A DNA stretch of 63,933 nucleotides, counting the filler. It is 22 parts of 22 records of this genome, joined end to end, with 100 filler letters (N's around TTAATTAATTAA, not from the genome) between each part and the next. Parts side by side here need not be neighbours in the genome. Positions count along the whole stretch, not along the records: positions 46,008 to 51,854 come from SRR16133337_83105; 21 more parts are not named here. One strand, 5' to 3'. Under the pieces are notes generated by a model. It did not search any database, had not been told where the DNA came from, and saw only the letters and a list, made by a program, of their open reading frames with translations. The translations under genes and the position numbers were made by a program. Positions 31,443-63,933 of the stretch are shown one piece after another. The stretch's first letter is position 1, and every line of letters starts with the position of its first letter.

Positions 31443-31555
31443 GAGACTCCATCCAACTTCCTTTTCAGATTTTTACCCTAAACTTGCCGAAGGGTTTCCT
31501 TTTTCCTTTTTTCAGTCAAAAAGCGACCATCAGAAACCGTAATTCGTAAATCAAA

Positions 31556-32776
31556 ATGACCTACCAAGAAACCCTAGATTGGATGTTTGCCCAGTTACCA
31601 GTATACCAAAAACAAGGAGCGACAGCTTATAACAAAGGGCTATCCCCTACTTTGTTATTCGCAAATAAACTAAACCATCCCGAAAACAATTTTAAAAGCA
31701 TCCATGTAGCAGGAACCAATGGAAAAGGGTCTACCTGCCATATGTTGGCTTCGGTATTGCAAGAAGCAGGTTATAAAGTAGGACTGTATACTTCTCCACA
31801 TTTAAAAGATTTTAGAGAGCGAATTAAAATAAATGGACAAGAAATTTCTGAAAAAGTAATCCTAGACTTTATTGCCCTAAACCGATCTTTTCTTGAAAAC
31901 AATCACTTGTCTTTTTTTGAAATGACGGTAGGTTTGGCTTTTCAATATTTTAGTGACGAACGGGTAGATTTCGCCGTTGTTGAAGTCGGTTTAGGAGGAC
32001 GTTTAGATTCCACCAATATCTTAATGCCTGAAGTTTCAGTAATTACCAATATCGGTTTGGATCACACGCAATTTTTAGGAGATACTTTAGAAAAAATTGC
32101 TTTTGAAAAAGGGGGAGTTATTAAAAAAAAGATCCCTATCGTTATTGGTGAATATCAAAAAGAGACGTTCCCAATATTTAAAAAATTAGCCGAAGAAAAT
32201 AAGGCATCCTTGTATCTGGCATCAAAACTTGTCGTTAAAAAAGTAGCCTCAGATTTAAAAGGAGGTTATCAAAAACACAATATAAAGACCGTTGTTCAAG
32301 TGGTTTCTATTTTAAAAGAAAAGGGATTTAAGATTTCAGCATCCACTCTTTTTAAAGGTTTGGGTAAAGTGGTATCAAATACAGGTTTGTTAGGAAGGTG
32401 GCAGGTTTTAAAAAAGAAGCCTAAAACCATTTGTGATACGGCACATAATAGAGAAGGGTTGAGGTATACCCTGGAACAATTGAAAAACGAGTCCTTTGAA
32501 AACTTACATATCGTTTTGGGAATGGTAAAAGACAAAGATTTGTCTTTTGTTTTACCCTTATTTCCAAAAAAGGCACGTTATTATTTTTGCAAACCCAATT
32601 TAGAAAGAGGTTTGGAAGTAGAGGCCTTACAACGACAAGCAATGCAGTTTGGATTGCAAGGATTCTGTTTTAAATCTGTAAGTCAAGCCTATAAATCAGC
32701 ACAAAAACAAGCTTCCAAAAAGGACTGTATTTACATTGGTGGAAGTACCTTTGTGGTTGCAGAAATTTTATCCTAA
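31556..32776 (+). CDS. folC: Bifunctional folylpolyglutamate synthase/dihydrofolate synthase
   Basis: IHVAGTNGKGS, YTSPHL, EVGLGGRLDSTN, CDTAHN motifs. Confidence 0.97.
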   Translation: MTYQETLDWMFAQLPVYQKQGATAYNKGLSPTLLFANKLNHPENNFKSIHVAGTNGKGSTCHMLASVLQEAGYKVGLYTSPHLKDFRERIKINGQEISEKVILDFIALNRSFLENNHLSFFEMTVGLAFQYFSDERVDFAVVEVGLGGRLDSTNILMPEVSVITNIGLDHTQFLGDTLEKIAFEKGGVIKKKIPIVIGEYQKETFPIFKKLAEENKASLYLASKLVVKKVASDLKGGYQKHNIKTVVQVVSILKEKGFKISASTLFKGLGKVVSNTGLLGRWQVLKKKPKTICDTAHNREGLRYTLEQLKNESFENLHIVLGMVKDKDLSFVLPLFPKKARYYFCKPNLERGLEVEALQRQAMQFGLQGFCFKSVSQAYKSAQKQASKKDCIYIGGSTFVVAEILS

Positions 32777-32781
32777 AAATA

Positions 32782-32812
32782 TTGGTGAATCTAAATATCT
32801 ATCTTATATTTG
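32782..32812 (+). promoter_or_regulatory. Bacteroidetes housekeeping promoter of tRNA-Val
   Basis: TTG (32782-32784), 20-nt spacer, TATATTTG (32805-32812), matching the -33 TTG / -7 TAnnTTTG consensus. Confidence 0.75.
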
Positions 32813-32822
32813 CCACCGTTGA

Positions 32823-32897
32823 GGGCAATTAGCTCAGCTGGTTCAGAGCACCTCGTTTACACCGAGGGGGTCGGGGGTTCGAATCCCTCATTGCCCA
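32823..32897 (+). tRNA. tRNA-Val(TAC)
   Basis: Acceptor stem GGGCAAT/ATTGCCC, D arm AGCTCAGCTGGTTCAGAGC, anticodon arm CCTCG-TTTACAC-CGAGG, T loop GGTTCGAATCC. CCA not encoded. Confidence 0.97.
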
Positions 32898-32905
32898 CAC
32901 GATAG

Positions 32906-32942
32906 GACTTCTTCCTTTTTTTGGTTGGAGTCTTTTTTTTTC
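32906..32942 (+). terminator. Probable intrinsic terminator after tRNA-Val
   Basis: Imperfect stem GACTTCTTCC/GGTTGGAGTC followed by a T-run. Confidence 0.5.
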
Positions 32943-33195
32943 AAATAAGATTCCTTGTCAATTAGATCGTCTAAGAATCCGTTGACGAGCTATCGAGTTT
33001 CGCCTTTGTTTTTTCAATTTGCATTTCAAGTTGAACGCCAAAAGAGACCCAATTTTTCTGCTTGTGTCTTTCCCATTCCAACACACGCTTATTCATCTCG
33101 TTCAACCAATTGGGCTTCAATTGACAGGACTTATTTTTTCTGACTATTTGCTCTGCCACGTGAGAGTTTGGGATACATTTTTTGTTTGAAATCGA
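32930..33195 (-). pseudogene. Frameshifted fragment resembling the coiled-coil region of a large serine recombinase
   Basis: Reads ...WLNEMNKRVLEWERHKQKNWVSFGVQLEMQIEKTKAKLD, then after a 1-nt shift near 32990 LVNGFLDDLIDKESYLKKK, matching the KLDxLxxxFLDGxIxKExYLxKK pattern of these recombinases as I recall it. Confidence 0.55.
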
Positions 33196-33295: not shown

Positions 33296-33337
33296 ATAGC
33301 AAACCTAAAACTTTCGGGTTTCTAACTGGGCGGAGTA
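33296..33337. repeat. Partial copy (loop plus right arm) of the 66-bp palindromic bacterial element
   Basis: ATAGCAAACCTAAAACTTTCGG-GTTTCTAACTGGGCGGAGTA at the contig start. Confidence 0.9.
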
Positions 33338-33391
33338 CATCATAAAACCCTTTATAGATTATTCGTATTTTAGCCACTAAAATAAAATCTC

Positions 33392-35089
33392 TTGAAAAAC
33401 AACATTCTCTTTTTTCTCTCTTTCTTTTTCTTTAGCAACAGCCTTAGAAGTCAGCAAACATACCCTCAAAATTATTTTAGAAAGCCTTTGGACATTCCTT
33501 TGATACTTTCTGGAACTTTTGGAGAATTGAGAACAAATCACTTTCATGCTGGAATCGATTTAAAAACACAACAAAAAGAAGGTTTTAAAGTATATACTGC
33601 TGCGGAAGGCTATATTTCTCGCATTAAAATTTCACATTGGGGTTATGGAAAAGCACTTTACGTAACCCATCCCAATGGATATACAACTGTATATGCACAT
33701 TTGAAAAAGTTTTCTAAAAAAATAGAAGACTATATCCGAAAAAAACAATATCAATTAGAGGAATTTGAAATTCAAGCATTTCCAAAAAAAGAGGAACTCC
33801 TTATTTCAAAAGACGAAGTAATTGCCTATTCGGGTAGTACAGGTGGGTTTATTGCCCCCCATTTGCATTTTGAAATTCGCCATACAAAAACAGAAAAAAT
33901 CATCAATCCAATGCACTTTGGTTTGGTTTTAACAGATACCAAACATCCAAAAATTCTTCATTTACGAGCCTATGCCTTAAACGATTCTTCGCACATAAAC
34001 GCAAGTAACCGACCTATACCCATTACAATCAAAGAAATTGAAAAGGGTATCTATAAGGCTCACAATATTAGTGGCTACGGAAAAATAGGGTTTGGCATCC
34101 ATACCTACGATCAACAAGATGGAGCTTTGAATAAAAATGGAGTTTATAAAATTGAAATGCTTGTCAATGATCAGACAGCTTACGAACACCGCTTAGAAAC
34201 ATTTTCATTTAAGGAATCTAAATTCATGAACTTATTGATCGACTATCCTTATTTTTCTGTACACAAAAGAAAATATCAAAAAACCTACATCCATCCAAAA
34301 AACAAATTAAGTATCTATAAAAAAACAGAAGAAAAAGGAATTCTTCTTATCGAAGACAAACGAGACTATCAAATACAAATCAAAGTAAGCGATTTTCATG
34401 GAAATACCTCTTCTTTAACCTTCTCTGTAAAAGGAGAGAAGAAACAACCAAAACTCAAAAAGAAAATCCAAAAGACTCCGTATTTTATCAACCATTTAGA
34501 ACCCATATCTTTTAAGAAATCAGGAGTTAAAGTTGAATTTCCAAAAAACACTTTTTACGATGATTTCTATTTAGATTTTAAAATAAAAGACAGTATTGCC
34601 CTAATCCATAAACCCGAAATTCCTTTGTCTAAAAGTTATACGTTGAGTTTTGAGGTAACGAATTATACAGAAGCCCAAAAAGAAAAATTATATATCGCTC
34701 GTATTCATAAGGATCACTATTTTAATTATTGCCATACCCATAAGACGGACAGTATTTTCAAAACTTCCACTAACTTTTTAGGGAGCTACAAATTACATGC
34801 AGATAACGAACCTCCTAAAATTTACGATTGTAGTTTTTACTCAGGTCAAAATCTAACAAAATATTGGTATTTTACCATTCGAGTAAAAGATGAATTATCA
34901 GGTTTAAAAACCTACAGAGGTGAAATTGATGGAAAATGGATTTTGCTAGAACTCAATGTAAAAACAAATACCTTAACTTACGAATTTCACAACAAAGAAC
35001 TTGACAAGGGAAAACATATATTTACACTATTTGCTATGGATAATGTTGGAAATACTTGTACATTTACATCTCCCTTTTATCTAAAATAA
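33392..35089 (+). CDS. M23 family metallopeptidase (Bacteroidetes type)
   Basis: GTFGELRTNHFHAGIDLK, YAHL and PHLHFEIR motifs; signal peptide. Confidence 0.93.
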   Translation: MKNNILFFLSFFFFSNSLRSQQTYPQNYFRKPLDIPLILSGTFGELRTNHFHAGIDLKTQQKEGFKVYTAAEGYISRIKISHWGYGKALYVTHPNGYTTVYAHLKKFSKKIEDYIRKKQYQLEEFEIQAFPKKEELLISKDEVIAYSGSTGGFIAPHLHFEIRHTKTEKIINPMHFGLVLTDTKHPKILHLRAYALNDSSHINASNRPIPITIKEIEKGIYKAHNISGYGKIGFGIHTYDQQDGALNKNGVYKIEMLVNDQTAYEHRLETFSFKESKFMNLLIDYPYFSVHKRKYQKTYIHPKNKLSIYKKTEEKGILLIEDKRDYQIQIKVSDFHGNTSSLTFSVKGEKKQPKLKKKIQKTPYFINHLEPISFKKSGVKVEFPKNTFYDDFYLDFKIKDSIALIHKPEIPLSKSYTLSFEVTNYTEAQKEKLYIARIHKDHYFNYCHTHKTDSIFKTSTNFLGSYKLHADNEPPKIYDCSFYSGQNLTKYWYFTIRVKDELSGLKTYRGEIDGKWILLELNVKTNTLTYEFHNKELDKGKHIFTLFAMDNVGNTCTFTSPFYLK

Positions 35090-35163
35090 CAGCGGCATTG
35101 TCAATTTTAAATGATGAATGACCGATAAAAGAGGGATAAGACCTAACAGATAAATATTTATTT

Positions 35164-37623
35164 TTGATAAAAAAATTCACATACTTTCTACTCTTTTTTT
35201 TAACAACAAATCTCTTAATTGCTCAAACAGCAACGGTAAGGGGAACGGTAAAAAACAGTAAAAGAAACCCGATAGAAGGGGTAACTATTTCTTTTGAAAA
35301 GCGGAAAGGAACCACCACGGATAAAGATGGAAAATACACACTCACCATTCCTGCTCAACAAGAAATTGTATTGATATTCAGTCATGTTGCTTATAACAAA
35401 CTCTATAAAAAAGTCAAAATCTCCAAAAACAGAACTTTCAGGTATTCACCAACACTGAGTTACAAAACAGAAGAAATAGAGGAAGTAACTATTCAGGACA
35501 AAAGAAAAGAGGTACAAGGAATTACCACGATTAAAAAATCCACACTAAAAAACCTACCCGGAGCCAATCCTGGTGTAGAAAATTTACTGATGACCTTTGC
35601 GGGTGTCAACAATAATAACGAATTGAGTACCCAATACAATGTTAGAGGAGGTAATTTTGATGAAAACCTTGTTTATGTAAACGGTATAGAAATCTACAGA
35701 CCCTTTTTAGTGAGGTCTGGGCAACAAGAAGGATTGAGCTTTGTAAACACGGAGATGATTCAGAATATAGATTTTTCTGCAGGAGGATTTCAAGCAAAAT
35801 ATGGAGATAAACTTTCCTCCGTTTTAGAAATAACCTACAGAAAACCCAAAGAAACCACCACAAATATAAATCTGAATTTATTAGGAGGTAGCGCTACTTT
35901 TGAAGGGAGGTTTCTTCAAAACAAACTCTCAACAATAACAAGTATTCGCTATAGAAACAACCAATTATTAGTCAATACAAAAGATACCGAAACAAACTAC
36001 AAACCTTTGTTTACAGACCTCCAAACTTTTTTATCCTATAAACTCTCTGAAAAATTATCGTTCGATTTTTTAGGAAATCTTTCTATCAATAACTATCACT
36101 ACACTCCTTTAACGAGAATAACTCGTTTTGGAACGATTGACAACCCTATTGAATTGGTTGTTTTTTATGAAGGAAATGAGAATGACAAATTCAACACTTT
36201 ATTCGGTGCTGTAAATACGATTTACAGACCTTCAAATGATTTAAAAGTAACATTGACAACTTCTGCTTACAACACAAAAGAAGAAGAATTTTTTGATATC
36301 ATAGGGGCTTATTCTTTAAATCAAATAAATGAAGACGAAGCATCTGCTGATTTTGGAGAAATAGAATTTAGCGAAGGAATTGGAGGTCAAATTAACCATT
36401 CTAGAAATGAATTGGATGCGTTGATTAAAAATATTCAGTTAAAGATCTCCTTAAAAAATGGAAACAACCATTACGAACTAGGAATGAAAATCCAAAAGGA
36501 AGACATTAGGGAAAGAATCAACGAATGGGAATTGATTGATTCTACAGGCTTTGCTATTCGTCCTGCAAGTCATACCGTTCCTAACAACCAACCTTCTTCT
36601 CCATACACAGGTCCTATAGAACCTTACCAGTCCATAAGAGCTGATAACAAGGTAGACATTCGTCGTTTTAGCAGTTTTGTACAATGGAGCAAAAAAACAG
36701 TGTGGAAAGAACACGAAATCTGGTATAATTTTGGAGTACGAACTCAATACTGGAATGTTAGTACTGAAGGGTTTACATCCGCTACACAGAATACGGTAAG
36801 TCCGCGTGCACAATTTACGATAAAACCCAATTGGGAACAAGACATGCTTTTTAGAGTCTCAGGAGGTTATTACCATCAACCTCCTTCTTATAAGGAATTA
36901 AAAAACGATGAAGGGGAAATTCTAAGAGATGTAAAAGCACAACAATCCTTTCATTTTGTACTTGGAAATGACTATAGTTTTCAACTGTGGGATCGCCCTT
37001 TTAAGTTAATAACAGAGGTCTATTCAAAAAAATTGACCGCGGTAAACGCTTATACGGTTGATAACGTTAGAATACGCTACAGAGCAGATAATGTGACTAC
37101 GGCTTCTGCTATTGGACTAGATATCCGTTTAAATGGTGAATTTGTTCCAGGAAATGAAAGTTGGGTAAGTTTAGGACTTTTAAAAACCACCGAAAATATA
37201 AACAATCAAGGAGAAATTCCCAGACCTACAGATCAAAGGTTTAAACTCGGAATTTTATTCCAAGACTATGTTCCTAGTATTCCTGACTTAAAAGTCTTTT
37301 TAAATCTCGTTTACAATGCTGGACTTCCTGGAGGTTCTCCTTCTTATAATGATCCTTATGCTTATCAAAGCAGACTCCCTGGATATAAAAGAGCAGATGT
37401 TGGATTTTCGTATACCATTGTAGACGATGCTAAAAAATACAAAACGGGTTTTTTAAGGGGTTTTAAAGCACTAAATATAGGTTTAGAAATCTTTAATATT
37501 TTTGACATTCAAAACACCAATACCAATACATGGGTTAGAGATGCCTATTCTAAACAGATATACGGAATACCCAACTATATGACTGGCCGTGTATTAAGTA
37601 TCCTTTTAAATTTTAGATTTTAG
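35164..37623 (+). CDS. TonB-dependent receptor with N-terminal carboxypeptidase-regulatory-like domain
   Basis: Signal peptide; plug YNVRGGNFDENLVYVNGIEIYRP; GGFQAKYGDKLSSVL; C-terminal Phe. Confidence 0.93.
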   Translation: MIKKFTYFLLFFLTTNLLIAQTATVRGTVKNSKRNPIEGVTISFEKRKGTTTDKDGKYTLTIPAQQEIVLIFSHVAYNKLYKKVKISKNRTFRYSPTLSYKTEEIEEVTIQDKRKEVQGITTIKKSTLKNLPGANPGVENLLMTFAGVNNNNELSTQYNVRGGNFDENLVYVNGIEIYRPFLVRSGQQEGLSFVNTEMIQNIDFSAGGFQAKYGDKLSSVLEITYRKPKETTTNINLNLLGGSATFEGRFLQNKLSTITSIRYRNNQLLVNTKDTETNYKPLFTDLQTFLSYKLSEKLSFDFLGNLSINNYHYTPLTRITRFGTIDNPIELVVFYEGNENDKFNTLFGAVNTIYRPSNDLKVTLTTSAYNTKEEEFFDIIGAYSLNQINEDEASADFGEIEFSEGIGGQINHSRNELDALIKNIQLKISLKNGNNHYELGMKIQKEDIRERINEWELIDSTGFAIRPASHTVPNNQPSSPYTGPIEPYQSIRADNKVDIRRFSSFVQWSKKTVWKEHEIWYNFGVRTQYWNVSTEGFTSATQNTVSPRAQFTIKPNWEQDMLFRVSGGYYHQPPSYKELKNDEGEILRDVKAQQSFHFVLGNDYSFQLWDRPFKLITEVYSKKLTAVNAYTVDNVRIRYRADNVTTASAIGLDIRLNGEFVPGNESWVSLGLLKTTENINNQGEIPRPTDQRFKLGILFQDYVPSIPDLKVFLNLVYNAGLPGGSPSYNDPYAYQSRLPGYKRADVGFSYTIVDDAKKYKTGFLRGFKALNIGLEIFNIFDIQNTNTNTWVRDAYSKQIYGIPNYMTGRVLSILLNFRF

Positions 37624-38166
37624 ATTGTTTAGATTTTTTTTAAAGGAGTTCGTCAAAGTGTCTTGTCCTAAAATAGGTTTACATCANNNNNNNNNNNNNN
37701 NNNNNNNNNNNNNNNNNNNNNNNNNNNNNNTTAATTAATTAANNNNNNNNNNNNNNNNNNNNNNNNNNNNNNNNNNNNNNNNNNNNGAAAAGTTTTCTTG
37801 GACGGCATATAAGCGAGTGATTTTAGAGAATTTGGAGAGTGCCACGTAATTAGAATTTTGTAAAAATAAAATGTCATTTTGTACAATTATTTTTTTATCT
37901 TTACCACAACCCTTAAGATGTACAGTGACATGGTTGAAGAGAAAACTGATTCTTTTACTCCCTGCACAACAACACTTTAACAAATTTCATATTACTTATC
38001 TTCACCGAAAATTGTTTCTCCCTTGATGTTCGAGACACAAATTATTTGGAGCATCAATTCTATGGGTATCAATAAATTAGAAAATCTTTTGTTTTAATTT
38101 CATTCACGAGTACATGAACGTGCGAGAAACCATTCCCAATTGATAATTGTGAGCACTTTTCCCAGC

Positions 38167-39931: not shown

Positions 39932-39957
39932 TTTCGGGTTTCTAACTGGGCGGAGTA
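39932..39957. repeat. Partial copy (right arm) of the 66-bp palindromic element
   Basis: TTTCGG-GTTTCTAACTGGGCGGAGTA at the contig start. Confidence 0.9.
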
Positions 39958-40275
39958 TATCGTACAATTTCTAAAGATGTAAATATATCATTTTTTAAAA
40001 AAAGGGAGGTTTTTTAAAAAAATCTATGATTCCATCCCAATCAATTTTCGGAGAGTTTAGCAAATTTATTTTTGTTTGCAACAAGACTCCATTTTCAAGT
40101 ATAACCTCTATGGTTATCGGCTGTCAGTTATAAAAAGTGAGCAAAAGGGCTGTAGGCTTTAAGTAACAAGCAAAAATTTGAAAAAGAAAGACAACAGGAT
40201 TACTTCACCGTATCACTGTTTCAAGGTATCACCGTTTCACTATCTACAATAATAAAAGCTTACAGCCAAAAACAA

Positions 40276-40306
40276 TTGGTTACCATAGGGTTTTCTAATA
40301 TCTTTG
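40276..40306 (+). promoter_or_regulatory. Bacteroidetes promoter of thrS
   Basis: TTG (40276-40278), 20-nt spacer, TATCTTTG (40299-40306). Confidence 0.75.
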
Positions 40307-40325
40307 CATTCTTAAAATTAGATTC

Positions 40326-42266
40326 ATGATTAAAATTACATTGCCCGATGGAAGTGTGAAAGAAGTTGCAAAAAACAGCACTGCTTATGACCTTGCAAAA
40401 GGCATCAGCGAAGGGTTGGCAAGAGTTGTTATCTCTGCAAAATTTAACGATACCACTGTTGAAATTGTAACGCCATTAACCACTGATGGAAATTTAGTTT
40501 TGTACACCTTTGACGATCCAGAAGGTAAAAAAGCTTTTTGGCATTCCTCTGCACACGTACTGGCACAAGCAATACAAGAAATATATTCTGGTGTAAAATT
40601 AACCATTGGTCCTGCTATTGATACCGGTTTTTATTACGATTTAGATTTGGGAGACCAAACTATTTCTGAAAATGATTTTTCAGCGATTGAGAAGAAATTC
40701 TTAGAATTAGCAAGGGGAAAACATGAATTCAAAATACGCAAAATCTCTAAAGCAGATGCCTTGGCGAAATACAACGAAGAAGGTAATGAATACAAAGTGG
40801 AGTTGATAGAAAACTTAACCGATGGCACCATTACATTTTGCGATCATGACAACTTTACAGATTTATGTAAAGGAGGACATATTCCAAACACAGGAAGCAT
40901 TAAGGCCCTAAAAGTAATGGGGGTTGCGGGTGCTTACTGGCGTGGTGATGAAAAAAACAAACAATTAACACGTTTGTATGGGATTTCTTTCCCAAAACAA
41001 AAAATGTTAACCGAATATTTGGCTTTGTTAGAAGAAGCAAAAAAACGAGATCATAGAAAACTCGGTAAAGAACTTGAATTGTATACCTTTTCCGCTAAAG
41101 TAGGACAAGGATTGCCTCTGTGGTTACCAAAAGGTGCTGCCTTGAGAGAACGTTTGGAACAATTCTTAAGAAAAGCACAGAAGAAAGCTGGCTATGAAAC
41201 GGTGATCACCCCTCATATTGGACAAAAAGAATTGTATCTAACTTCTGGGCATTATGAAAAATATGGAGAAAATAGTTTTCAACCCATCCATACACCAAAA
41301 GAGGAAGAGGAATATCTATTAAAACCTATGAATTGTCCACATCATTGTGAAATTTACAAGGTAAAACCGTATTCATACAAAGAACTACCTATACGATTTG
41401 CTGAGTTTGGTACGGTTTACAGATATGAACAAAGTGGAGAATTACATGGATTGACACGGGTTCGTTCTTTTACGCAAGACGATGCACATATTTTCTGTAC
41501 ACCAGAACAATTAGATTCTGAATTTAAAGCAGTTATTGATTTGGTTCTGTACGTATTCAAAGCATTAGGTTTTGAAGATTTTACCGCACAAATCTCTCTA
41601 AGAGCTCCTGAAAACAAAGAAAAATATATTGGTAGTGATGAAAATTGGGACAAAGCAGAACAAGCAATCCTCCATGCAACCCATGAAAAAGGCTTAAAAA
41701 CAGTGGTTGAATATGGGGAAGCTGCTTTTTATGGACCTAAGTTAGATTTTATGATAAAAGATGTTTTGGGAAGAAGTTGGCAATTAGGAACCATTCAGGT
41801 AGACTATAATTTGCCAGAACGATTCAACCTAAACTACAAAGGATCAGACAATCAATTACACAGACCTGTCATGATTCACCGGGCACCTTTTGGTTCTATG
41901 GAACGTTTTATTGCTATTTTATTGGAACACACAGGTGGCAATTTCCCCCTTTGGCTAACCCCAAAACAAGTTATTTTACTTCCTATCAGTAATAAATATG
42001 AGAAATATGCTAAAAAAGTTTCAGAAATGCTAGAAAATTCCGAAATTCGCACCCTGATTGATTCTCGAAATGAAAAAACGGGTAGAAAAATTAGAGATGC
42101 AGAATTGAGTAAAACCCCTTATATGATTATCGTTGGAGAAAAAGAAGAAAACGATGGAACTGTATCGATAAGAAAACACGGAAAAGGAGACTTAGGAATC
42201 TTTACAATAGAAACATTTATTCAATTGGTACAAAAAGAAGTAAACCGTATCTCGGTACAATTTTAA
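40326..42266 (+). CDS. thrS: Threonine--tRNA ligase
   Basis: TGS N-terminus [50 protein letters not shown]. Confidence 0.99.
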
Positions 42267-42302
42267 ATAACACCTGTTTAAACAGGTTTAAATTTTTGAG
42301 TC

Positions 42303-42863
42303 ATAGCAATACGTAGAAACAGATCCCCTAGAAAACCTTGGAGAACCCAAAACGAAGACCAACACAGGATCAACGGAAAAATTAGAGATGTTGAAGAAGT
42401 TAGATTGGTAGGAGAAAATATCAAAATTGGTGTGTATCCTATTAAAGAGGCAATAGAAGTTGCTAGAGAACAGGAATTGGATTTAGTAGAAATTTCACCA
42501 AAAGCAGTACCTCCTGTTTGTAAAATTGTTGATTACAAAAAATTCTTGTACAATCAGAAAAAAAGAGAAAAAGCACTAAAATCAAAAGCAACCAAAGTGG
42601 TGGTGAAAGAAATTAGGTTTGGACCTCAAACAGATGAACATGATTATGATTTCAAAAAGAAACACGCTATGAAGTTCCTTCAAGAAGGAGCAAAACTAAA
42701 AGCATTTGTATTCTTTAAGGGAAGATCTATCATCTTTAAAGATCAAGGACAAATCTTATTATTAAGATTGGCACAAGAACTCGAAGAATACGGAAAGGTA
42801 GAACAAATGCCTAGACTAGAAGGAAAAAGAATGATTATGTTTATGACTCCTAAAAAAAAGTAA
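42303..42863 (+). CDS. infC: Translation initiation factor IF-3, probable ATA start
   Basis: [19 protein letters not shown] and KEIRFGP motifs. The frame is open upstream of the TTG call to ATA at 42303 ([28 protein letters not shown]). Follows thrS. Confidence 0.95.
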
Positions 42864-42868
42864 AAATA

Positions 42869-42894
42869 TACTCCGCCCAGTTAGAAACAAAAAT
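42869..42894. repeat. Partial copy (left arm) of the 66-bp palindromic element directly after infC
   Basis: TACTCCGCCCAGTTAGAAAC-AAAAAT at the contig end. Confidence 0.9.
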
Positions 42895-42994: not shown

Positions 42995-43417
42995 ATGGCT
43001 TTATCTATTATTATTTTTTTTTTTATTCCCTTTATATATAACATTAAACAAAAAATAAAATTCAATTTAACTTACCATTTAAATAGTTTTTATAATTATT
43101 ATATAATAAATAACATAAATAAAAATTTAAAAATACTTTTATTAAATAATAATTTAATTTATAACAGTTTAAATTCTAATAAAATAAATTTAAGCAAATT
43201 TAATTATTTGTTACTTTACTCAACAAAAGTTTATAAATTAAATTATAAGAACCAAAATTTAGTAACATTTCGTTGAAATTTTCAAAATTTATTTATAAGA
43301 AAAGTTCTTTTTGTAGTTTTTATATTATTACTGATATCCTTAGGATTTTTTAATGACTTACACTTAGGGCCTTACTATATAATTTTTTACTTTTTAATAA
43401 TCTTTTTTATAGTTTAA
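42995..43417 (+). CDS. cob: Probable 3' end of mitochondrial cytochrome b (TGA=Trp)
   Basis: Reading TGA 43274 as Trp extends the frame to TAA 43415-43417. MALSIIIFFFIPF ... VTFR ... KVLFVVFILLLISLGF ... LGPYYIIFYF resembles the last three cob helices. Converges on nad1 with a 4-nt gap. Confidence 0.6.
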
Positions 43418-43421
43418 AAAC

Positions 43422-44357
43422 TTATATTAATCTAGATAATAAAATATTTCAAAAAATTAAAATAAGTGATAAAGGAAAAAGGTATTTTCAAGCATAAAAT
43501 AAAAGCTGATCATAACGTACTCTAGGGTAAGCTGCACGAATACTAATAAAAATAAAATTAATTATAGTCAACTTTAAAAATAATTCAAAAAAACCAGTAA
43601 AATTGCTTCAAAAGATTAAAACCATTAAAAACCCTGCTATAAGTACTTGAGCGTATTCTGCAACTAAAATAAGTAGTAAGTTAACTCCAGAATGCTCTAC
43701 TTGGTAACCTGCTATTAATTCAGATTCTGCTTCTGCTAAATCGAATGGTATTCTATTAGTTTTGATTAAAATAACTATTAAAAAGGTAAAAACATTTAAA
43801 GGTACTAGGTAACTTAAACTAATTTTTAAATAAATTAATTGATAAATAACTATATCAAACATATTAAAAGAATTAACAAATATAATAGGGCTTACTAATA
43901 ATAATCCAAAGGAGAGTTCATAAGATAGGGTTTGTCCAATGTATCTTATAATACTAATCAAAGCGTACTGGTTATTACTTGATCAGCCAATACAAATAAT
44001 TCCGTAAGAAAAGAAGGAGGTTACTAATAAAAATAAAAAAATAGGTAAACTTATATCTAAAAGGGTAATATTCGTTATAGTCATTGCCTGTTTATTTATA
44101 AAAGGCAAAGTTATTCAGCCACCTAAGCTTAAAATAAAAGTATACGTGGGTGCTAACATAAATATTATAGCATTTGTTTTTGTAGGGATTATTAACTCTT
44201 TAGATAATAGTTTAATGGCATCTGCTATTGGTTGTAATAAACCATAAATACCTACAAAAGTAGGACCTACGCGTCGCTGTAAGCTAGCCATAATATGCCT
44301 ATCTGCTAAAGAAATATAAGCTACTGAACCTAAAACAACAATAATAATTATTAACAT
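43422..44357 (-). CDS. nad1: Mitochondrial NADH dehydrogenase subunit 1 (TGA=Trp; start may be an upstream ATA/ATT near 44387)
   Basis: LQRRVGP, GLLQPIADAIKL, NRIPFDLAEAESELIAGY, RAAYPRVRYDQL...WK. Continuous frame when TGA is read as Trp. Confidence 0.97.
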
Positions 44358-44389
44358 TTTAATTATGAGAAAAATAAATATATATATAT

Positions 44390-45907
44390 TTATATAAAAA
44401 ATACCATTATATTTATATAAATAGCTAAAAGAAATGCTAATATAAAATTAATATTTAGTTGAATAACAAACTTATTAAATTGAAATTTTTGTATTAATCA
44501 ACTAAATTTTTTATAAATAACTAAATGATTAGCCGTTTCTACTAAATAATTATCAATAGATATAAAAATAAAAAATCCTTTTTTTAAATTATGGTATAAA
44601 GATCAATTTAATAAGGAATCTAATGAAAAGTTAGTAATCCTTTTAATTAACTGTATTCATAAATTTTTTAAAATAGTATTATTATGTGAAAATTTTAATA
44701 AATTTTGAGTTTTTGTATTAAAAAAATTTAAATCTTCAAAATTATCAATAAGACATGTAAAGAAAATTATTAAAAATGTACTATATATTAAATGAAGCTC
44801 GTTTCAGTCGCTTAAAAACCAAAATAACGATATTTCCTGCAAATTAAAATAATAATTATTAGATATAAATATATTAAAAAATAAAAAGCCTATTAGTTGA
44901 CTTAAGATTCCTAAAATAATTAAAATAGTTAAGGGTAACCATTTAGATTCATATAAATTTAATAAATTTTTTTTTTTAATATTAATTCTATCGCTAAATC
45001 ACGAGAGTAAATAGCCAATATATAAAGCACTACAAATAAAGCTTAAAAAACACATTAAAAAGGCACTAAATATAATAAAAGAGTTTACTATTATATTATT
45101 AAAAGCCCAGTATGAGTTAAAAAAAAGTTCTTTAGAATAATAACTACTAGAATTTGGTAAATTTAACATAGTTATACACCAATATTCTTCTAAAATACTA
45201 ATTAAAGGTAATAAATTAAATATTCCCCCCATGAGCCGACAATCCTGTTCATTATGTAACAAATGTATAATAAACCCTGCAAATAAAAATCCAAAAGCTT
45301 TAAAATAAGCATGGGTAGTTAAATGAAACAAACTTATAGACAAATCTCCTAAACCCAAACTCATAAACATTAAACCTATATGACTAGCTGTGGAATTAGC
45401 TATTACTCTTTTTATATCAAATGAAGTAGCTGCTATTAAACTAGTAATTAATGTTGTTGCTGTGCCTAAAACCATAATAACCAGTAAGAATTCTGGATTT
45501 ATTTTAATAATATTAAAAGTTTGAATAATTAAAAAAACTCCAGCTATTACCATAGTTGCCGAGTGTATAAGCCCGGATACTGGAGTAGGTCCTTCCATAG
45601 CGTCTGTTAATCATAAATGAAAAAAAAATTGGGCTGACTTACCAAAAGCAGCTAATATTAGACTAAATCCTAGTATTTTAATAATGGAGTAAGAGTATAT
45701 TTCTGTTGAATTAAAATAAATAAAAAGTTTATTTATTACAATAAGGTCCGAATCTTGTAAAATATGTAAAGATAAGAAAATAGCAAGCATAAAACCTAAA
45801 TCCCCAATTTTATTATATAAGACTGCTTTTAGTGCGCTTTGATTAGCCTCTTGTCTAAAAGATCAAAAGTTGATTAATAAAAAAGAACAAATACCCACAG
45901 CTTCCCA
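44390..45907 (-). CDS. nad5: Mitochondrial NADH dehydrogenase subunit 5, 5'-truncated (TGA=Trp)
   Basis: WEAVGICSFLLINFW, GKSAQ, AMEGPTPVSGLIHSATMV, FHLTTHAYFKA. Frame continues to TAA at 44392-44390. Confidence 0.97.
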
Positions 45908-46259
45908 NNNNNNNNNNNNNNNNNNNNNNNNNNNNNNNNNNNNNNNNNNNNTTAATTAATTAANNNNNNNNNNNNNNNNNNNNNNNNNNNNNNNNNNNNN
46001 NNNNNNNTCAGGTTTGCGAGGGACAAAAAATACGTTCCTCTCTATCGCGTGGCGTTCATCAGACTGTAAAACAAAAGGAGCGAAATTTCGGTCCCCTTAT
46101 ACCAAAAAATGAATTTTACACAGGTTTCTTGCCACAAAAATCTGGCACGTAATTTCGGTCCAACTAAAAAACTTGGCGCGTAATTTCGTTCCAACTCAAA
46201 TCAAACCTGGCACGTAATTTCGGTCCTTCCAACTAGAAGAATAAACAACACAAAACAAA

Positions 46260-46655
46260 ATGTCACAATCCACAGCATTCCAGGTCCTAGCGAAAGCACC
46301 ACACCGATGTGTCAACCTGAACACTAAACATTCATTGGCAACTCCACCTGCCATCACCTGTTTCCTTGAAAACAATTTCGCCATTATCTACGTGTCATAC
46401 TATGTAAACCACAATAATTGGCCAGTACCTCTATTTTACTGCACAATTGACAGCAAGAGCCAATTTTTTCCAAATTGGTGTAAGCTGCGTCACGATATGA
46501 CACTTCTGGAGGGTGATCTTTTTTATGGGACCTGGATTTGCGATTCACGCTTTTTATGGCATATTAAACTTCACGAACAGTCCATGAATTTTGTGGCACA
46601 TTATGGACTCCCTCTCCCACTCATGACGCAATTTCTTGATACTGCAAGTATGTAA
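46260..46655 (+). CDS. Upstream ORF or first exon(s) of the DIRS-like element
   Basis: ATG in an A-rich context, 131 codons, ending over a GTATGT donor at 46648. The join to gag is not resolved. Confidence 0.4.
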   Translation: MSQSTAFQVLAKAPHRCVNLNTKHSLATPPAITCFLENNFAIIYVSYYVNHNNWPVPLFYCTIDSKSQFFPNWCKLRHDMTLLEGDLFYGTWICDSRFLWHIKLHEQSMNFVAHYGLPLPLMTQFLDTASM

Positions 46656-46914
46656 TGTGGGATTTCACAAATATTAATCTTTTGTGTTAAATTATGGTGA
46701 AAACACCTTCTCTAAAAATAGAATCAGGAGCAATTTTAATCTTGAATTCCACAAGTATTTATTTTGAGCACTACATCATGGTGACAAACCCTACCATTTA
46801 AAAATAGATTCAGGAGCATTTTCAATATTGGAATTCACTCGGATCTCCTTTTCACGCAATACTATGATTTTCATCTCAAAATAAGTTCGGTGAATTTATA
46901 TTTCACATTTTTAG

Positions 46915-47930
46915 TGACAATCATATTTATGAACTCTCCGTGACTTATCTCAAATCAAAATTTCCAAAAGCATTTCTTCGCAGCGATGAACTTGCACCAC
47001 CAAACGTCCTTGAACAACGAATTACCAATTTTGAAAATGACCTCCGCCAAAAAGACATTGATATCCAACGGGCTTTTCAGGATGGGTCGTTCGCTCGCAA
47101 AATGGCGTTGCACTTTGATTCGAGTCCACGAAAAAACAATTTTTTACCAGGGGGAACGGTGAAGGCCCTGAACAGTGTTATGCCAACTAAGGATATTCCC
47201 GTTCAAGGCGCCAATTGGCCTGATGTAGGGATGCGTGTACAACTCACGGGTTCCCCGGATAAGAAAAAACTCTGGAAATACGTGGTTCATGACCTTTTGC
47301 GCCAAATGCATAAACGCACAGTGGGTCGAGAAAAAATTTCGCTCATGGCAGCGCACGCAATTGACAAATTTAATGCGATTGACGACCCATCCAGGGAAGA
47401 GACTGCGGATTTTAGGGACGATATGATGGACCTGTGGCAATTCTCAACTTTTTATGACGCAGAATCAGCCCTTCACATACAAGAGCACGTTGTAGCACTT
47501 CTTGCACACAATACATACGGAAAATTCAAATCGAATGTGCGCCTTGAAGCAGGACCACGCCCCTCCGTTCTGAATGAGGACGAGATTAAAGAAGAAAATG
47601 AGCGCCGTGAGAAAACGCAAGAAAACAGGAAATCGTAGGTCCCCACACCAACGCCCTCAAATTGCCTTACACAAGCATCTCCAAACGCATACATCAACCA
47701 CGTTTTACAAAATATCATGAATATTATATAACTCCTTTACCCTAAGACTAACATCCTCATTATGTTCATATAGTAGGACCAAATTCCGAAATAATGTGGG
47801 TAGCGCGCGATACAGAGGACGTAACGGGTACAAGAGACGCCGCAATAATTTTTCTCGCGGACCAAGGAGCAGAGGAAGAGGAAGAGGAAGCTTCCGGTCT
47901 TTTCGGTTCAGCCGGAGGGGAAGACGTTAA
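46915..47930 (+). CDS. Gag-like protein, spliced (46915-47634 + 47774-47930)
   Basis: Lies upstream of pol. Removing intron 47635-47773 adds an Arg/Gly-rich tail RTKFRNNVGSARYRGRNGYKRRRNNFSRGPRSRGRGRGSFRSFRFSRRGRR. Confidence 0.75.
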
Positions 47931-48030
47931 TAGTCTCCAACTCCGGCCAGTCTACCAAACATATGACACCCAACTCAGGTCTGTATTTTCCAACCGTAAG
48001 TCACTAACCTAAGCCTCTATGTATCTTTAG

Positions 48031-50371
48031 CAATGGTTTTCGCTTTCCATGTACCAAATTTGCAAATTTGCCGGTTGACATACGGCGCCTATGTACACGC
48101 GTACTTCCTCTTGCCTTTTATAAAAGAAATAACATCACACCTTGTACTCTTTGGCAGGCGGACAAACTAAGATGCTTAATCGAAGAAGGTCGAAATCTGC
48201 GCACATACCACAATTTTCACGATCACGGTCATCCCTACCCCCACAGGTTAGAATGTTGGCGCACAGAAGCACCAAGGTTCGCAACAAGCTCAACACTCAT
48301 AAAAGGTATCCTCCAAAATGGTTTATCACTATTTCCATATTTTACACGCGCACCGCAACGGCAAAAACCAGCGGAAATCTCAAAAATAAAAACGCAACAA
48401 ATGGCCACATATAGAGCATCACCACAACTCAGAAACAAATTATTTAAACTTCTTGACAAGGGTGTCATTGAGGTACTACCTCGAGAAAAAATTAAACATG
48501 CACACATCCACCACATATTTGGTATCCCCAAGAAAAATGGTGACATTCGAGTTACTGCCAACTTAAAGCCCCTCAATCAATTTTTGCGTGATACACCGAT
48601 AAAAATGCAAGGACCAGCTCGTATCAAACAATTAATCTTTCAAGATTGTCTTTTCACATCGGAGGACTTCACTGATGCTTACTGGACAATTCATGTCCAA
48701 CAGTCTTCCAAAAAATTCCTAGCATTTTTCTTGTCTCCGACGACGGTGTGTGTATGGTCAGTCATGCCATTTGGTCTAAAATTAGCATCATACATATATG
48801 AAAAAACGCAAAGAGCAATAAATTCCGAAATAAAAAACCTTGGCATCACACGATCAGCGTATCTCGACGATGGGCTTACGATTACACCACCACAACCCCG
48901 CCAGGTCGAGCGCGCCCACCAAAATCAATTTCTGGTTAATCTAGTTTTTGTTGCTTTGGGTTGGAAACTCAACATGAAAAAGTCACATTTCATACCATCC
49001 ACAACAATACAACATCTCGGTTTTGACTGGGATTCACACAAAATGACAATTTCCATCCCCCAAGCTAAACGGTGTTCCATTTCCGAACTCTGTAAGGACT
49101 ATTGGGAGCAAGGACGCAGGGGTTCCCCTATCACATATCGTGACATTTTACACATTATCGGAGTCATACAAGCAAATTATCTGGCAATCCCCAACATGAA
49201 CATACACACACGGCATTTGAACCAGTGGCGTAGAAAATTTGCGAAAAAACACTTCCCAATTCCGAATTATGATGTCCAAATAAAATTACCGCACACAGTT
49301 CTCCTTGAGATCAAAAGTTGGGTGGTGAAAATACACAAGTTCCACACGCGTAACCTCATACCTGATGCATCATTTGCAACTATCCACGTAGATGCTAGTG
49401 GAAGTAAAGGCTGGGGTTACAATGTCGTCAATAACATACACAAATTCCACTTCACAAGCAGCCAGGGCACGTGGCCGAACTTCCTCACAAACGCATCTAT
49501 TAACTGCAAAGAACTTTGGGCCATATTTTTTGCCTTAAAATCCATTCTCTCAGCAGAAAAAATTCAAAACTGTACACTTGACATTGGCACGGATAACACC
49601 ACTGCCTTAGCATATTTCCAAAAACAAACTGGTAAATTTGCTCATCTCCTACAACCAGTTCTGTCGACATTCCAATTATTAGAGCCAGAAAATATAAAAG
49701 TCCGCTTCTTTTGGATAGAAACAGCAAAAAACACAGCGGACAAACCCTCACGTGAATTTCTCGACAGACACACCTATTCTCTACCGTACAAAATCTTCCT
49801 CACTGTTACAAAACACTATGGTGAACCCGACATTGACCTGTTTGCGTCTGCTTGTAATGCCAAAACAAAACCTTATGTCAGTTTAAACCCACAGCCAGAT
49901 GCTTTATACGTAAACGCTTTTCGTGCGGACAAAAAATGGAGCCAATTTCAAACAGTTTGGGCTTTCCCACCGATCCCTTGTATCAATAGAGTTTTAGCAC
50001 GACTTAAACACGATTCACCACATTTATTTCTGCTGGTTGTGCCGTTTTGGACAAATAGTACCTTTTTACCAACATGTTTTGATATGTTAGTGGACCTTCC
50101 AACTTGGCTGACAAGCATTCCCATGCACGAGAATTTAGATACAGAGATACACAGTGCTTGTGTGAAAACCCCGACATTAGACCTAATCTTAATGCCCTTA
50201 TCCGGGTCCTCACAAAACATTTCGGCCTTTCGGACAAAGTTACATCACTGGTACTTGAAAGTCGCGCCAAAGGCACTAAATCAAATTATTCGGTCAAATG
50301 GCGAGAGTGGGTTGCGTTTTGCCAAGAAGAGCGCTATTGTGCTCTCAATGTTACAGGGCTTGGCTCACTAG
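48031..50371 (+). CDS. DIRS pol: reverse transcriptase, RNase H and DNA adenine methyltransferase-like domain
   Basis: RT: IPKKNGDIR, DFTDAY, VMPFGL, YLDD, HLGF. RNase H: VDASGSKGWG, INCKELWA, TDNTTA, NTADKPSR. MT: IDLFAS, WAFPP, LVVPFW. Confidence 0.95.
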
Positions 50372-51204
50372 AGTTCGTAGCCGCATGTGCTACCAGAAGA
50401 GATACAGGTGCTGGGGTCGCAGCACAGGCGCAATACATGTTACGTTTTGTGGAGCGTCTCTTACACTTTGAAACTCTGCGACCTCTTTTAGTGGATGCAG
50501 CAATGCGTAACAAACCAGTTTTCCCTCGTTGGACTTCCGTGTGGGCTATAACACCTCTGATAGAGCACCTCCACAAAATGGGGCCACATACTAAACTCTC
50601 GTTGAAAGAGCAGAGAGCTAGAACAATGGCTTGCGTAAAATTGGATTGCCTTGGTCAGAGACAAGTTTGCTCGAAATTGTACAGAAATTACTGTGTCCTA
50701 TCGCCACTCGACCAAGAGGGAAATCGATCGGTCACACTTCGTGTCTTTAGACGGAAGTCATATAGACCTGGTCAAAATGATTTCGGCATGCCCTTCACAA
50801 TTCATGGAGTGAAATATGAAAATGAATTTTACACTTCTACACCTCATAATATTGCGTGGATGTGGGACAAAGAGCAACAAGTTATAGGCAATAACACACG
50901 ACCTGGGGTTTTCCCCCCGCTAACACCAAGGGCAGGAAGGTCACTACTCTCCCCTCAGACGGTTTCAACTATTTTACACAAAATAATGTCTGATGCCAAT
51001 ATCCCACCACAATATACTCCGGGGTCCTTCCGAGCGGCTTCAGCGAGCCACTGTTATCAGCAAGGGGTTCCAATTCGCAAAATATTAGATCGGGCTGATT
51101 GGGCATCGGAAGAGACATTTTTCAAATGGTATAGAAAACTATCTGACCTCCAACCACGCTCCGAAAACCAAGATCTCACTGTTGAAATTTCGCTTCGTTC
51201 ATAA
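50104..51204 (+). CDS. DIRS tyrosine recombinase (overlaps the pol 3' end by up to 268 nt)
   Basis: SRAKGTKSNYSVKWREW, PRWTSVW, YTPGSFRAASAS, ILDRADWASEETFFKWY. Confidence 0.92.
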   Translation: MADKHSHAREFRYRDTQCLCENPDIRPNLNALIRVLTKHFGLSDKVTSLVLESRAKGTKSNYSVKWREWVAFCQEERYCALNVTGLGSLEFVAACATRRDTGAGVAAQAQYMLRFVERLLHFETLRPLLVDAAMRNKPVFPRWTSVWAITPLIEHLHKMGPHTKLSLKEQRARTMACVKLDCLGQRQVCSKLYRNYCVLSPLDQEGNRSVTLRVFRRKSYRPGQNDFGMPFTIHGVKYENEFYTSTPHNIAWMWDKEQQVIGNNTRPGVFPPLTPRAGRSLLSPQTVSTILHKIMSDANIPPQYTPGSFRAASASHCYQQGVPIRKILDRADWASEETFFKWYRKLSDLQPRSENQDLTVEISLRS

Positions 51205-51954
51205 TTGGTAATAATTTGACTTAACTTGTGAAAATCAACAGTTAAAAAGCATTGAGACAACAACAATACAAAAATTAAATCCTCTTCAAAAAACTAACTC
51301 CATACCGGTCCTCCATGAGATAGCCATTCCTACAAAATTACGGCGAATGCGCCTCTTGTCGGCCAAAACTGCTGCCACCTTTTGCATATCACAAAAGGCT
51401 CTTTTCAGTCTTAAACTTAAAATACCGCCCGCTAAAAAAGGAGCTTTTCATCAGTTTCGTCCCTTAATGTTTAGAAGCTTAGCATATAATTCTTTAGGTG
51501 AAAGATACCAATTAATTAATTTTCATTATTGTAGTTTATTTAACTCATTTGAACGACATTCCTTGTATTACACGCAATAAATATTTGGAATCCACTTTTT
51601 CTAACAAATTATGCCACTAAAAATTTCAAATTTCATTACTCTCTAGCGTAACACCTCGCACCCGGTTTCTGGAAATTAAGTTACACAAAATACTTTCACT
51701 CGGAATAACCGGGTCACACCACGTCCGTCAGGGAACGCTATAGGTGGTGACAATACAAAATTAGCGCGATATTACATTACTTCACTAGGTGCGAGATCGA
51801 AAATACTTTTCGTTTCTACATAGGAAGCATACATGTTTGCATGTTTTGTTTCACNNNNNNNNNNNNNNNNNNNNNNNNNNNNNNNNNNNNNNNNNNNNTT
51901 AATTAATTAANNNNNNNNNNNNNNNNNNNNNNNNNNNNNNNNNNNNNNNNNNNN

Positions 51955-61423: not shown

Positions 61424-61653
61424 GTGAGTGTTTGATGTTCGGAAGTTTCAATATTTTACAAATGTAAATGCGGAGTATGCACAAACCATACTAATGTAGA
61501 ACAATGTGTCTACGGATTTTTAAAAGCGATGCTGTTGGTTTTTGGGCTCGTNNNNNNNNNNNNNNNNNNNNNNNNNNNNNNNNNNNNNNNNNNNNTTAAT
61601 TAATTAANNNNNNNNNNNNNNNNNNNNNNNNNNNNNNNNNNNNNNNNNNNNCT

Positions 61654-62556
61654 CCAAATGTATGGTATTCTTATACAGGAAGTGGTAGTGAGGAAGCAAT
61701 CACTATAGACCTCTCTAATTCTGATTATAAGGTTTCATTTTTAGTTTATACGGGAACTCCTGGAAGCTTAACATTGGCTGGGCATGGTGGTGCATATGGT
61801 GCATTTTCTTCTGATGGGACTTCTACCTATTATATTACGATTACGGGTAGTATCCTCAGGGTAGGAGCTTTTGAATTAAACCTTTCGTGTGCTCCTCTTG
61901 CCTTAAACGATGATTGTAACAGTGCTACACCTCTTGTTCTAGGTACAGCTTTAACTGATGAGTTTACTATGGGGACTACACATCCAGTAGAATCTAAAGT
62001 ATGCAATCCTTATTTTGGTCGTAATCTATGGTATTTTTTTGTCGCTCCTACTAGTGGTTTAGTAAACATTAGAACAACATTAATAGGAGCAAATCAAGCG
62101 AGTCTTACCGTTTATGAAGATTGTGATCAAGTATTATGGTCGTTCCATTGTTCTAAGAATCACAATAGAGGAGAAGAAGATATTTCGCTTACAGGTTTAA
62201 CGGCAGGAAATCCCTATTTAGTGGAAGTTTGGAATGTAGATATAAAAGAAGAGTATACTGGTAAATTTGAAATTTTAGTCAGCGAAAGCTCACCATTATC
62301 TACTACAAATTTTGATGATGGTGACTTACCCTTTACTCATTATCAAAACCCAGTAAATACTAGGTTACCACTAAAAGCTAAAAAAAAGATGCAACGAGTA
62401 TTTATTTACGATATATTAGGAAAAAAAATATTGAGCGTATTTCCTAATAGCCTAAAAATAGATATCGATGTTTCTGAGTTGGAATCGGGAGTCTATTTTA
62501 TTGAAGTAACAACTATCGATAACAGAACTAAGATATTAAGAATTATTAAAAAATAA
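61654..62556 (+). CDS. T9SS type A sorting-domain protein, 5'-truncated
   Basis: Frame is open from the contig start (PNVWYSYTG...); NDDCNSATPL and LWYFF repeats; CTD YQNPV...IYDILGK...LESGVYFI...KILRIIKK. Confidence 0.9.
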   Translation, partial: PNVWYSYTGSGSEEAITIDLSNSDYKVSFLVYTGTPGSLTLAGHGGAYGAFSSDGTSTYYITITGSILRVGAFELNLSCAPLALNDDCNSATPLVLGTALTDEFTMGTTHPVESKVCNPYFGRNLWYFFVAPTSGLVNIRTTLIGANQASLTVYEDCDQVLWSFHCSKNHNRGEEDISLTGLTAGNPYLVEVWNVDIKEEYTGKFEILVSESSPLSTTNFDDGDLPFTHYQNPVNTRLPLKAKKKMQRVFIYDILGKKILSVFPNSLKIDIDVSELESGVYFIEVTTIDNRTKILRIIKK

Positions 62557-62561
62557 TTATA

Positions 62562-62625
62562 CACTCCGCTCACTTAGAAACAAAAAGAAGGCTCTAAAAA
62601 TTCGGGGTTCTAAGTGGGCAGAATA
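62562..62625. repeat. Degenerate full-length copy of the 66-bp palindromic element
   Basis: CACTCCGCTCACTTAGAAAC-AAAAAGAAGGCTCTAAAAATTCGG-GGTTCTAAGTGGGCAGAATA. Confidence 0.8.
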
Positions 62626-62919
62626 TATATTCCATCCTATTCCGTTTTTAGAGAATTTAGCCCATTTACTTGGTTCTACCACTGATTTTAATAAAAGTTT
62701 ACAAATCAAACATATAACCGCTTTATAGAATCACTGTATCTAAATACAAGAACTAATTTTTACTTTTTTTAAATTGTTTAGGATACTATTCATTGTATAA
62801 CCAAAAATATTTACTTACTTTGCAGTATCAAATCTAATAGAATTTATTCTATCTTAGAAGTAGTACTTGCTAAAAAGATTACTAAAAAAAGAGAATCTTC
62901 ATTCGTAAAACAATATCGA

Positions 62920-62972
62920 TACTCCCTTCCCTTAGAAACTCGAAAATTTTAGGGTTGCTGTTTTTGTTTCTA
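62920..62972. repeat. Degenerate inverted copy of the 66-bp element
   Basis: TACTCCCTTCCCTTAGAAACTCGAAAATTTTAGGGTTGCTGTTTTTGTTTCTA. Confidence 0.8.
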
Positions 62973-63165
62973 GCAAGATCATCTTGAGCCTTTCGAACTC
63001 AAGACAGACTTTGTCGAAGGGTTCAGGGCAGGCAAACAGACAAAAAAAAACTTACAGCCTAAAGCCAAAAATAAAAGAGATAAAAATTTGGAATTAGGAT
63101 GAAATATACGCCTAACTTAAAACACAGGATTTTCTGTAAACACACCCTATTGATACATAGAATTA

Positions 63166-63918: not shown

Positions 63919-63933
63919 GTTCTGGCTATAGGC

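Follow-up and report, generated by a model that had tools for sequence, protein, structure and literature searches.

The 63,933-base stretch of DNA analysed here (the window) contains, between positions 46008 and 51854, a contig with the internal part of a DIRS-like tyrosine-recombinase (YR) retrotransposon, in which a single 5' splice donor, lying on the stop codon of the gag-like frame, is joined to two different acceptors in the contigs of a public sequencing run (X1). Removal of 139 nt completes Gag with an Arg/Gly-rich tail, and removal of 396 nt fuses the gag frame to pol. The element is probably an intact, intron-bearing one, in which the use of alternative 3' splice sites, and not frameshifting, yields either Gag or Gag-Pol. 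X1 is the sole public run found with sequence of the element; it contains 79% of the sampled words of the contig, and its library type (RNA or DNA) is not on record.

The contig, the longest of the window, has N spacers on both sides and shows three successive long frames on the plus strand: 46868-47638 (256 codons), 48008-50371 (787 codons) and 50083-51204 (373 codons), which carry the gag, pol and YR regions, respectively. The gag-like frame terminates at the TAG at 47636-47638, which lies within the GTAGGT at 47635-47640, as a first-pass annotation made from the letters of this DNA had described. In the unspliced DNA there are nine in-frame stops between gag and pol, so readthrough is unable to link them. 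Both joints found in X1 start at this donor. The joint from 47634 to 47774 skips 139 nt with GT..AG borders and shows a depth of 7.36 in one contig, with 30 letters on the shorter side. The joint from 47634 to 48031 skips 396 nt, also with GT..AG borders, and shows a depth of 26.7, with 49 letters on the shorter side; it is contained in X1 record 3 (3944 nt), which runs contiguously from 47586-47634 into 48031-51854. Neither joint has positional ambiguity, and at both the value 'both = 0' indicates that there is no repeat able to cause a graph mis-join. The unspliced path is also present in X1, in record 5 (47605-47803, depth 8.96).

The exact 139-nt joint between 47634 and 47774 had been predicted by the first-pass annotation, together with the GACTAAC at 47746-47752, the CATATAG acceptor ending at 47773, the adjacent alternative TAG acceptor ending at 47776 and the TAA ending at 47930, and every one of these coordinates is right. 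Excision of 47635-47773 restores the gag frame, as had been claimed, and on recomputation it appends a bridging Ser codon and then 51 residues, including 19 Arg and eight Gly (pI ~12). The proposal that splicing completes Gag is supported in part by this joint, but the second and better-supported joint, from 47634 to 48031, had been missed, and since it fuses gag to pol the story shifts from the completion of Gag to a choice of acceptor between Gag and Gag-Pol. Excision of the 396 nt leaves a single unbroken frame that runs from gag exon 2 to the end of the pol ORF (open reading frame); the pol frame becomes open at 48008, 23 nt ahead of the acceptor, and has its first in-frame ATG at codon 124. 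An RCTAAC branch motif is located 22-23 nt upstream of both used acceptors, and these two motifs are among the five CTAAC found on the plus strand of the contig. Precise GT-AG removal is present in the nucleic acid of X1 at both joints. It is very unlikely that this geometry arose by deletion or mis-assembly, because the two skips share their GT edge, both stop at a YAG that follows a branch motif, and both bring back a long frame.

Upstream of gag exon 2, the TTTTAG acceptor ending at 46914, which had been proposed to open the gag frame, coincides with a loose end of X1 at 46913 ('before'). One contig carries there 28 letters with no match longer than 11 nt anywhere in the window, so the exon upstream of this acceptor lies outside the contig; in our own reading, the 28 letters are open in the gag frame. 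The gag start codon probably sits in this 5' exon, because within gag exon 2 the frame contains no ATG until 47102. Another loose end ('behind') is found at 47978, where a different X1 contig departs for 23 letters absent from the window, and this position may be a further donor. The X1 cover of 47979-48030 is estimated as about zero from bin means and the only contig that bridges it is the one with the 396-nt joint; this estimate is not used as evidence. A 35-nt 'mini-intron' at 47996-48030, linking the ATG at 47963 to pol, was rejected: its frame is off by one, and the acceptor at 48030 pairs instead with the donor at 47635.

In the proposed mechanism, the host spliceosome would process the transcript of the element, and the joined molecules are taken as mRNAs. 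The donor at 47634|47635 would pair with either of the two acceptors. Use of the acceptor at 47773|47774 would finish Gag with the Arg/Gly tail, which presumably binds nucleic acid and plausibly replaces a nucleocapsid-type RNA-binding domain, and use of the acceptor at 48030|48031 would fuse the Gag core in frame to Pol. The choice of the 3' splice site would in this way perform the role of frameshifting or readthrough in other retroelements. The acceptor at 46914 would receive the 5' exon from outside the contig, presumably the source of the gag start codon. The unspliced RNA would encode only the tail-less Gag core and is presumably the template of reverse transcription, by which the genomic copy would keep its introns. 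A broader version of this scheme is put forward tentatively, with somewhat less than even confidence: the splice switch would replace recoding, the 5' leader exon and the further donor would make a retrovirus-like set of messages, and only the unspliced RNA would be copied into DNA. On this version, no YR retroelement before it would have been shown to rely on the splicing of the host for every structural and enzymatic protein.

The X1 contigs and the window copy differ at 38 sites (~0.65%), and at each of them all the X1 depth carries the other letter, so X1 represents a slightly diverged copy or strain and not the identical sequence. The gag, pol and YR ORFs contain 22 of these sites: 18 are synonymous, three are not, and one is synonymous in YR only. 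By region, gag shows five synonymous and one non-synonymous differences, pol shows 10 and two, and YR shows three (one of them inside the overlap with pol) and one. Given a synonymous share of random changes of ~0.22-0.24, at least 18 synonymous sites out of 22 have a probability of ~2e-8, and the three ORFs are under purifying selection. This synonymous excess bears out the suggestion of the first-pass annotation that the element is apparently intact, and indicates that it is constrained and not a decaying relic. The single difference in exon 3 (47834) is silent when read in the Arg/Gly frame and changes a residue when read in the second open frame of this region. In the downstream ORF 51215-51580, one of the five differences is synonymous, and five of the 38 differences fall outside the gag, pol, YR, ORF0 and 51215-51580 ORFs.

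The gene set and order, as read from the sequence, are those of the DIRS group of tyrosine-recombinase retrotransposons. The pol exon begins with ~135 residues without assigned function, followed by a reverse transcriptase (RT) region that matches Pfam RVT_1 (E 7.3e-14, 52.4 bits; cut-off 29.6), an RNase H-like region and a Dam-like methyltransferase region. The Dam-like matches are weak (E 0.0047 and 0.0018, 17-18 bits, under the cut-off of 28.1). Over 594 columns, which span the RT, RNase H-like and methyltransferase-like regions, the protein is 31% identical to P0001, a hypothetical protein of a hookworm, and P0001 has its own Dam match (E 1.7e-5), likewise under the cut-off. Pfam gives no match for RNase H in pol; the region that aligns to P0001 contains D..E..D-like motifs, which may be those of RNase H. 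The YR ORF overlaps pol by 289 nt in a different frame and matches Phage_integrase (E 1.2e-6, 28.9 bits; cut-off 27.1). Its first ATG is codon 119, and it may also need recoding or splicing; no joint is seen there in the X1 contigs. Among the four proteins scanned with Pfam at E up to 0.1, none matched an integrase or protease family. The features used for this classification, including the putative methyltransferase that separates DIRS from Ngaro and Viper, are the defining ones given in the portion of PMC4157794 that was available.

Within the 5847-nt contig there are no terminal inverted or direct repeats, and neither an internal complementary region, as in Dirs1-like elements, nor split direct repeats, as in PAT, are present. 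The longest end-to-end pairs are of 16-20 nt at 75-88%; the contig probably stops short of the element termini. The element is therefore not placeable in the Dirs1-like or PAT types, which lowers the claim of completeness and not that of kinship. A 31-nt motif is repeated at 46069-46231, close to the start of the contig, in four copies that are 68-100% alike, and two X1 loose ends, at 46106 and 46139, fall within this array. No second copy of the element is present in the window. The pol protein gave 40 pattern matches among metagenome contigs, 16 among genome contigs and three among viral contigs, and none of them was confirmed; a 28-nt pattern of exon 2 gave no matches in these metagenome, genome and viral contig collections. 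A 189-nt contig of X1 (record 7, depth 3) matches only 43 nt of pol (49582-49624), with seven differences, and may come from a diverged relative of the element within X1.

The label gag is given by position alone. For this protein, Pfam shows no match, 157 word candidates include none at E <= 0.001, and there are no matches among 1,835,955,588 protein representatives and no usable match in Atlas. It lacks a zinc finger, a comparison with the N-terminus of P0001 shows no similarity, and its fold model from the single sequence is unusable (predicted local distance difference test score, pLDDT, 44.3; predicted template modelling score, pTM, 0.33). As no relative of this Gag was found, it lends no support to the statement of the first-pass annotation that DIRS Gag proteins often end in basic Arg/Gly-rich tails. 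In the region of the tail, a second frame (47752-48012) is also open. ORF0, located 5' of the acceptor at 46914 and so within the apparent 5' intron, has no match in Pfam, and its Atlas matches are under the recognition level. Four of its six differences from X1 are synonymous (P ~0.03), which points weakly to a coding function. A donor GTAATG at 46652, spliced to 46915, would set ORF0 in frame with gag exon 2; no such joint is found in the X1 contigs. The coordinates of these features are collected in Table 1.

Table 1. Features of the DIRS-like element and one intron-bearing gene elsewhere in the window
Feature	Position	Strand	Description
DIRS-like tyrosine-recombinase retrotransposon, internal part	46008..51854	+	Single contig, 5847 nt, GC (guanine plus cytosine) 0.416; RVT_1 and Phage_integrase
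ORF0	46260..46655	+	131 codons from ATG 46260
Acceptor TTTAG before gag exon 2	46910..46914	+	X1 loose end at 46913; upstream exon outside the contig
gag exon 2	46915..47634	+	240 codons; first in-frame ATG at 47102
Shared 5' splice donor GTAGGT	47635..47640	+	Holds the gag stop TAG 47636-47638; start of both X1 joints
Intron 1a, 139 nt	47635..47773	+	GACTAAC 47746-47752; acceptor CATATAG ending at 47773; stops in all three frames
gag exon 3	47774..47930	+	51-residue Arg/Gly-rich tail and TAA 47928-47930
Intron 1b, 396 nt (3 x 132)	47635..48030	+	Donor of intron 1a; CACTAAC 48002-48008; acceptor TTTAG ending at 48030
Possible further donor GTCTGT	47979..47984	+	48 nt past the Gag stop; X1 loose end at 47978
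pol exon	48031..50371	+	~135 residues without assigned function, then RT, RNase H-like and Dam-like methyltransferase regions
Tyrosine recombinase (YR) ORF	50083..51204	+	Phage_integrase
ABC-transporter gene	611-1640	minus	Interrupted by two GT..AG introns, ~711 and 237 nt

Several points weigh against an intact element that selects Gag or Gag-Pol by splicing. All the junction evidence comes from contigs of the single run X1, whose library type is not recorded, with no RNA run listed, and the 139-nt joint is flagged 'between: not known' and comes from a single contig, whose shorter side has 30 letters. Taken without the joints, the splice motifs do not exceed chance: on the plus strand of the contig, a donor followed by CTAAC and YAG is observed twice versus 1.83 times in 30 shuffles, CTAAC followed by YAG is observed four times versus 4.5 in 500 shuffles, and CTAAC itself is, if anything, under-represented (five versus 8.7 in shuffles). 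The Gag-Pol joint is the deepest of the three paths (26.7 versus 7.36 for the Gag tail), the reverse of the usual Gag excess, a comparison to be read with the caveat of the tool that the depth of contigs is no basis for ranking the parts of a gene. The protein called Gag has neither a homologue nor a usable fold model, the contig shows no terminal repeats, which weakens the case for completeness and mobility, and no other copy or relative of the element was recovered for comparison. Chance-level motifs, contigs of one run with the 139-nt joint flagged as above, and the fact that only one frame out of three is closed over 47775-47930 would all fit a reading without any splicing, in which the short forms come from deletions or from artefacts of the de Bruijn graph, Gag ends at the TAG at 47638 and the Arg/Gly frame is open by chance. 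This is the least likely of the readings and a very improbable one, as both skips share a left edge on GT, end on YAG behind RCTAAC and restore long frames, no repeat at the joints could produce a mis-join, and pol would have no start codon for 123 codons and would be severed from gag by nine stops.

The nature of X1 bears on a different reading, in which splicing is real but X1 is DNA, and the joints are retrotransposed copies of spliced RNAs, fossils that are silent on the expression strategy; intronless gag-pol copies might then be the main genomic form. The missing record of the library type, the absence of a listed RNA run and the fact that the window's own assembly is DNA all leave room for it, the contig without the 396 nt equals the whole pol-YR contig in depth, being that contig, and spliced DIRS-1 transcripts were reverse-transcribed and integrated in the marker assays described in the available part of PMC7192593. 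We nevertheless regard this reading as unlikely, since long contigs with a single variant at all 38 sites fit one expressed locus better than a mixed DNA family, three alternative paths from one donor are the usual picture of transcript isoforms, and a genome with processed copies only and no master copy would be odd. The same single variant in X1, together with strong purifying selection between the two samples, 5' and possibly 3' exons outside the contig and no terminal repeats seen in it, is also compatible with one or more host genes domesticated from a DIRS-like element, with ordinary host introns and isoforms. Domestication is, however, a decidedly improbable explanation: the RT, methyltransferase-like, YR and gag regions are all open together in an overlapping-ORF layout typical of mobile elements, the GC content of the contig is 0.416 versus 0.32-0.38 in the other eukaryote-like contigs, the window and X1 assemblies share two break points to within 26-71 nt, as repeats would lead one to expect, and the diverged pol-like fragment of 43 nt (depth 3) may point to further copies.

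The window is formed by 22 contigs of 2.0-5.8 kb, split by 21 spacers of the form N44-TTAATTAATTAA-N44, and since these contigs are of mixed origin, adjacency across the spacers carries no meaning. Bacteroidota-style genes are found on the contigs 29186-33195, 33296-37686, 39932-42894 and 61652-63933, and include those for a TonB-dependent receptor, a type IX secretion system (T9SS) sorting domain, DUF4290, threonyl-tRNA synthetase (ThrRS) and translation initiation factor IF3. The contig 42995-45907 (minus strand, GC 0.227) is mitochondrial, and contains ND1 and ND5 read with TGA as tryptophan. The eukaryote appears to be poorly sampled, because the identity of ND1 falls from 65-84%, reached only with unnamed metagenome proteins (contigs of 1.5-32 kb), to ~43% with alphaproteobacteria. 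The ABC-transporter gene shows, in our reading, an exon end at 1592 followed by GTGAGT, a 32-nt mini-exon (880-849) followed by GTAAGT, and a next exon from 611 after TTATTAG. Its two GT..AG introns indicate that the assembly of the window is eukaryote genomic DNA mixed with bacteria, and that the unspliced element in it is a DNA copy. Most of the other contigs show no long ORFs under any genetic code, and motif counts for host intron signals in the other contigs of the window show enrichment nowhere. A 148-codon ORF on another contig (19190-19633) matches Phage_integrase (E 3.4e-6), possibly as part of a further element with a tyrosine recombinase.

Intron loss is the expectation for retroelements, and the presence of introns has been cited in favour of DNA-based movement. 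If the element makes Gag and Gag-Pol by the choice of acceptor, YR retrotransposons can regulate the Gag:Pol balance by RNA processing, as copia, BARE, Ogre and foamy viruses do, and they must have some means of excluding spliced RNAs from reverse transcription. ORF-based annotation misreads such elements, with a gag 'ending' at 47638 and a pol 'without a start codon', and contigs of such retroelements also occur inside bacterial bins. In foamy viruses, Pol is made from a spliced mRNA and not by frameshifting, and Gag ends in Gly/Arg-rich boxes and not in zinc knuckles. These viruses differ from the DIRS-like element in that Pol is made without fusion to Gag, and they are long terminal repeat (LTR) retroviruses with an integrase.

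The element resembles the DIRS group in its gag-position ORF followed by RT, RNase H-like and Dam-like regions and by a tyrosine recombinase, in the overlap of its ORFs, and in that integrase and protease were not found. In contrast to that group, no repeats are visible here, gag has no zinc finger or relative, and the coding region is split by spliceosomal introns. No description of spliced gag or gag-pol in DIRS-like elements was found in the literature searched; the founding DIRS1 and Ngaro papers of Goodwin and Poulter are outside that search, and an earlier mention is possible. In one survey of DIRS elements (PMC3783388), 'intron' and 'splic' have no occurrences, and 'intron' has none in the available part of another (PMC3266345). 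In Ogre, a Ty3/gypsy LTR element of legumes, splicing takes place between ORFs (PMC3735527, part available), and the likeness is that an intron lies between an upstream ORF and the RT-bearing ORF and that its removal joins both, as the 396-nt skip does here. Unlike the present element, Ogre has LTRs and an integrase, whereas here one donor serves two acceptors and Gag has an alternative C-terminus. In Drosophila copia, barley BARE1 and the Arabidopsis Ty1/copia element EVD, according to the available parts of PMC3735527 and PMC5580714, a single gag-pol ORF is spliced into a Gag-only message and the unspliced RNA is kept for replication. Alternative splicing of the own transcript sets Gag versus Gag-Pol in those elements as it would here, but their unspliced RNA holds Gag-Pol in one ORF, while that of the DIRS-like element, with nine stops separating gag from pol, would give no complete Gag and no Pol; both products would need splicing. 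Genomic copies of Penelope-like elements also keep spliceosomal introns, which in the available part of PMC8557442 are mostly in the 5' untranslated region and whose persistence is attributed in that source to an unusual mode of retrotransposition and not to an expression switch; these elements differ from the DIRS-like element also in RT clade and endonuclease. Compared with these known spliced retroelements, the present one differs in its YR class, the location of the donor on the gag stop codon, the presence of two acceptors, and the need of splicing for both full products.

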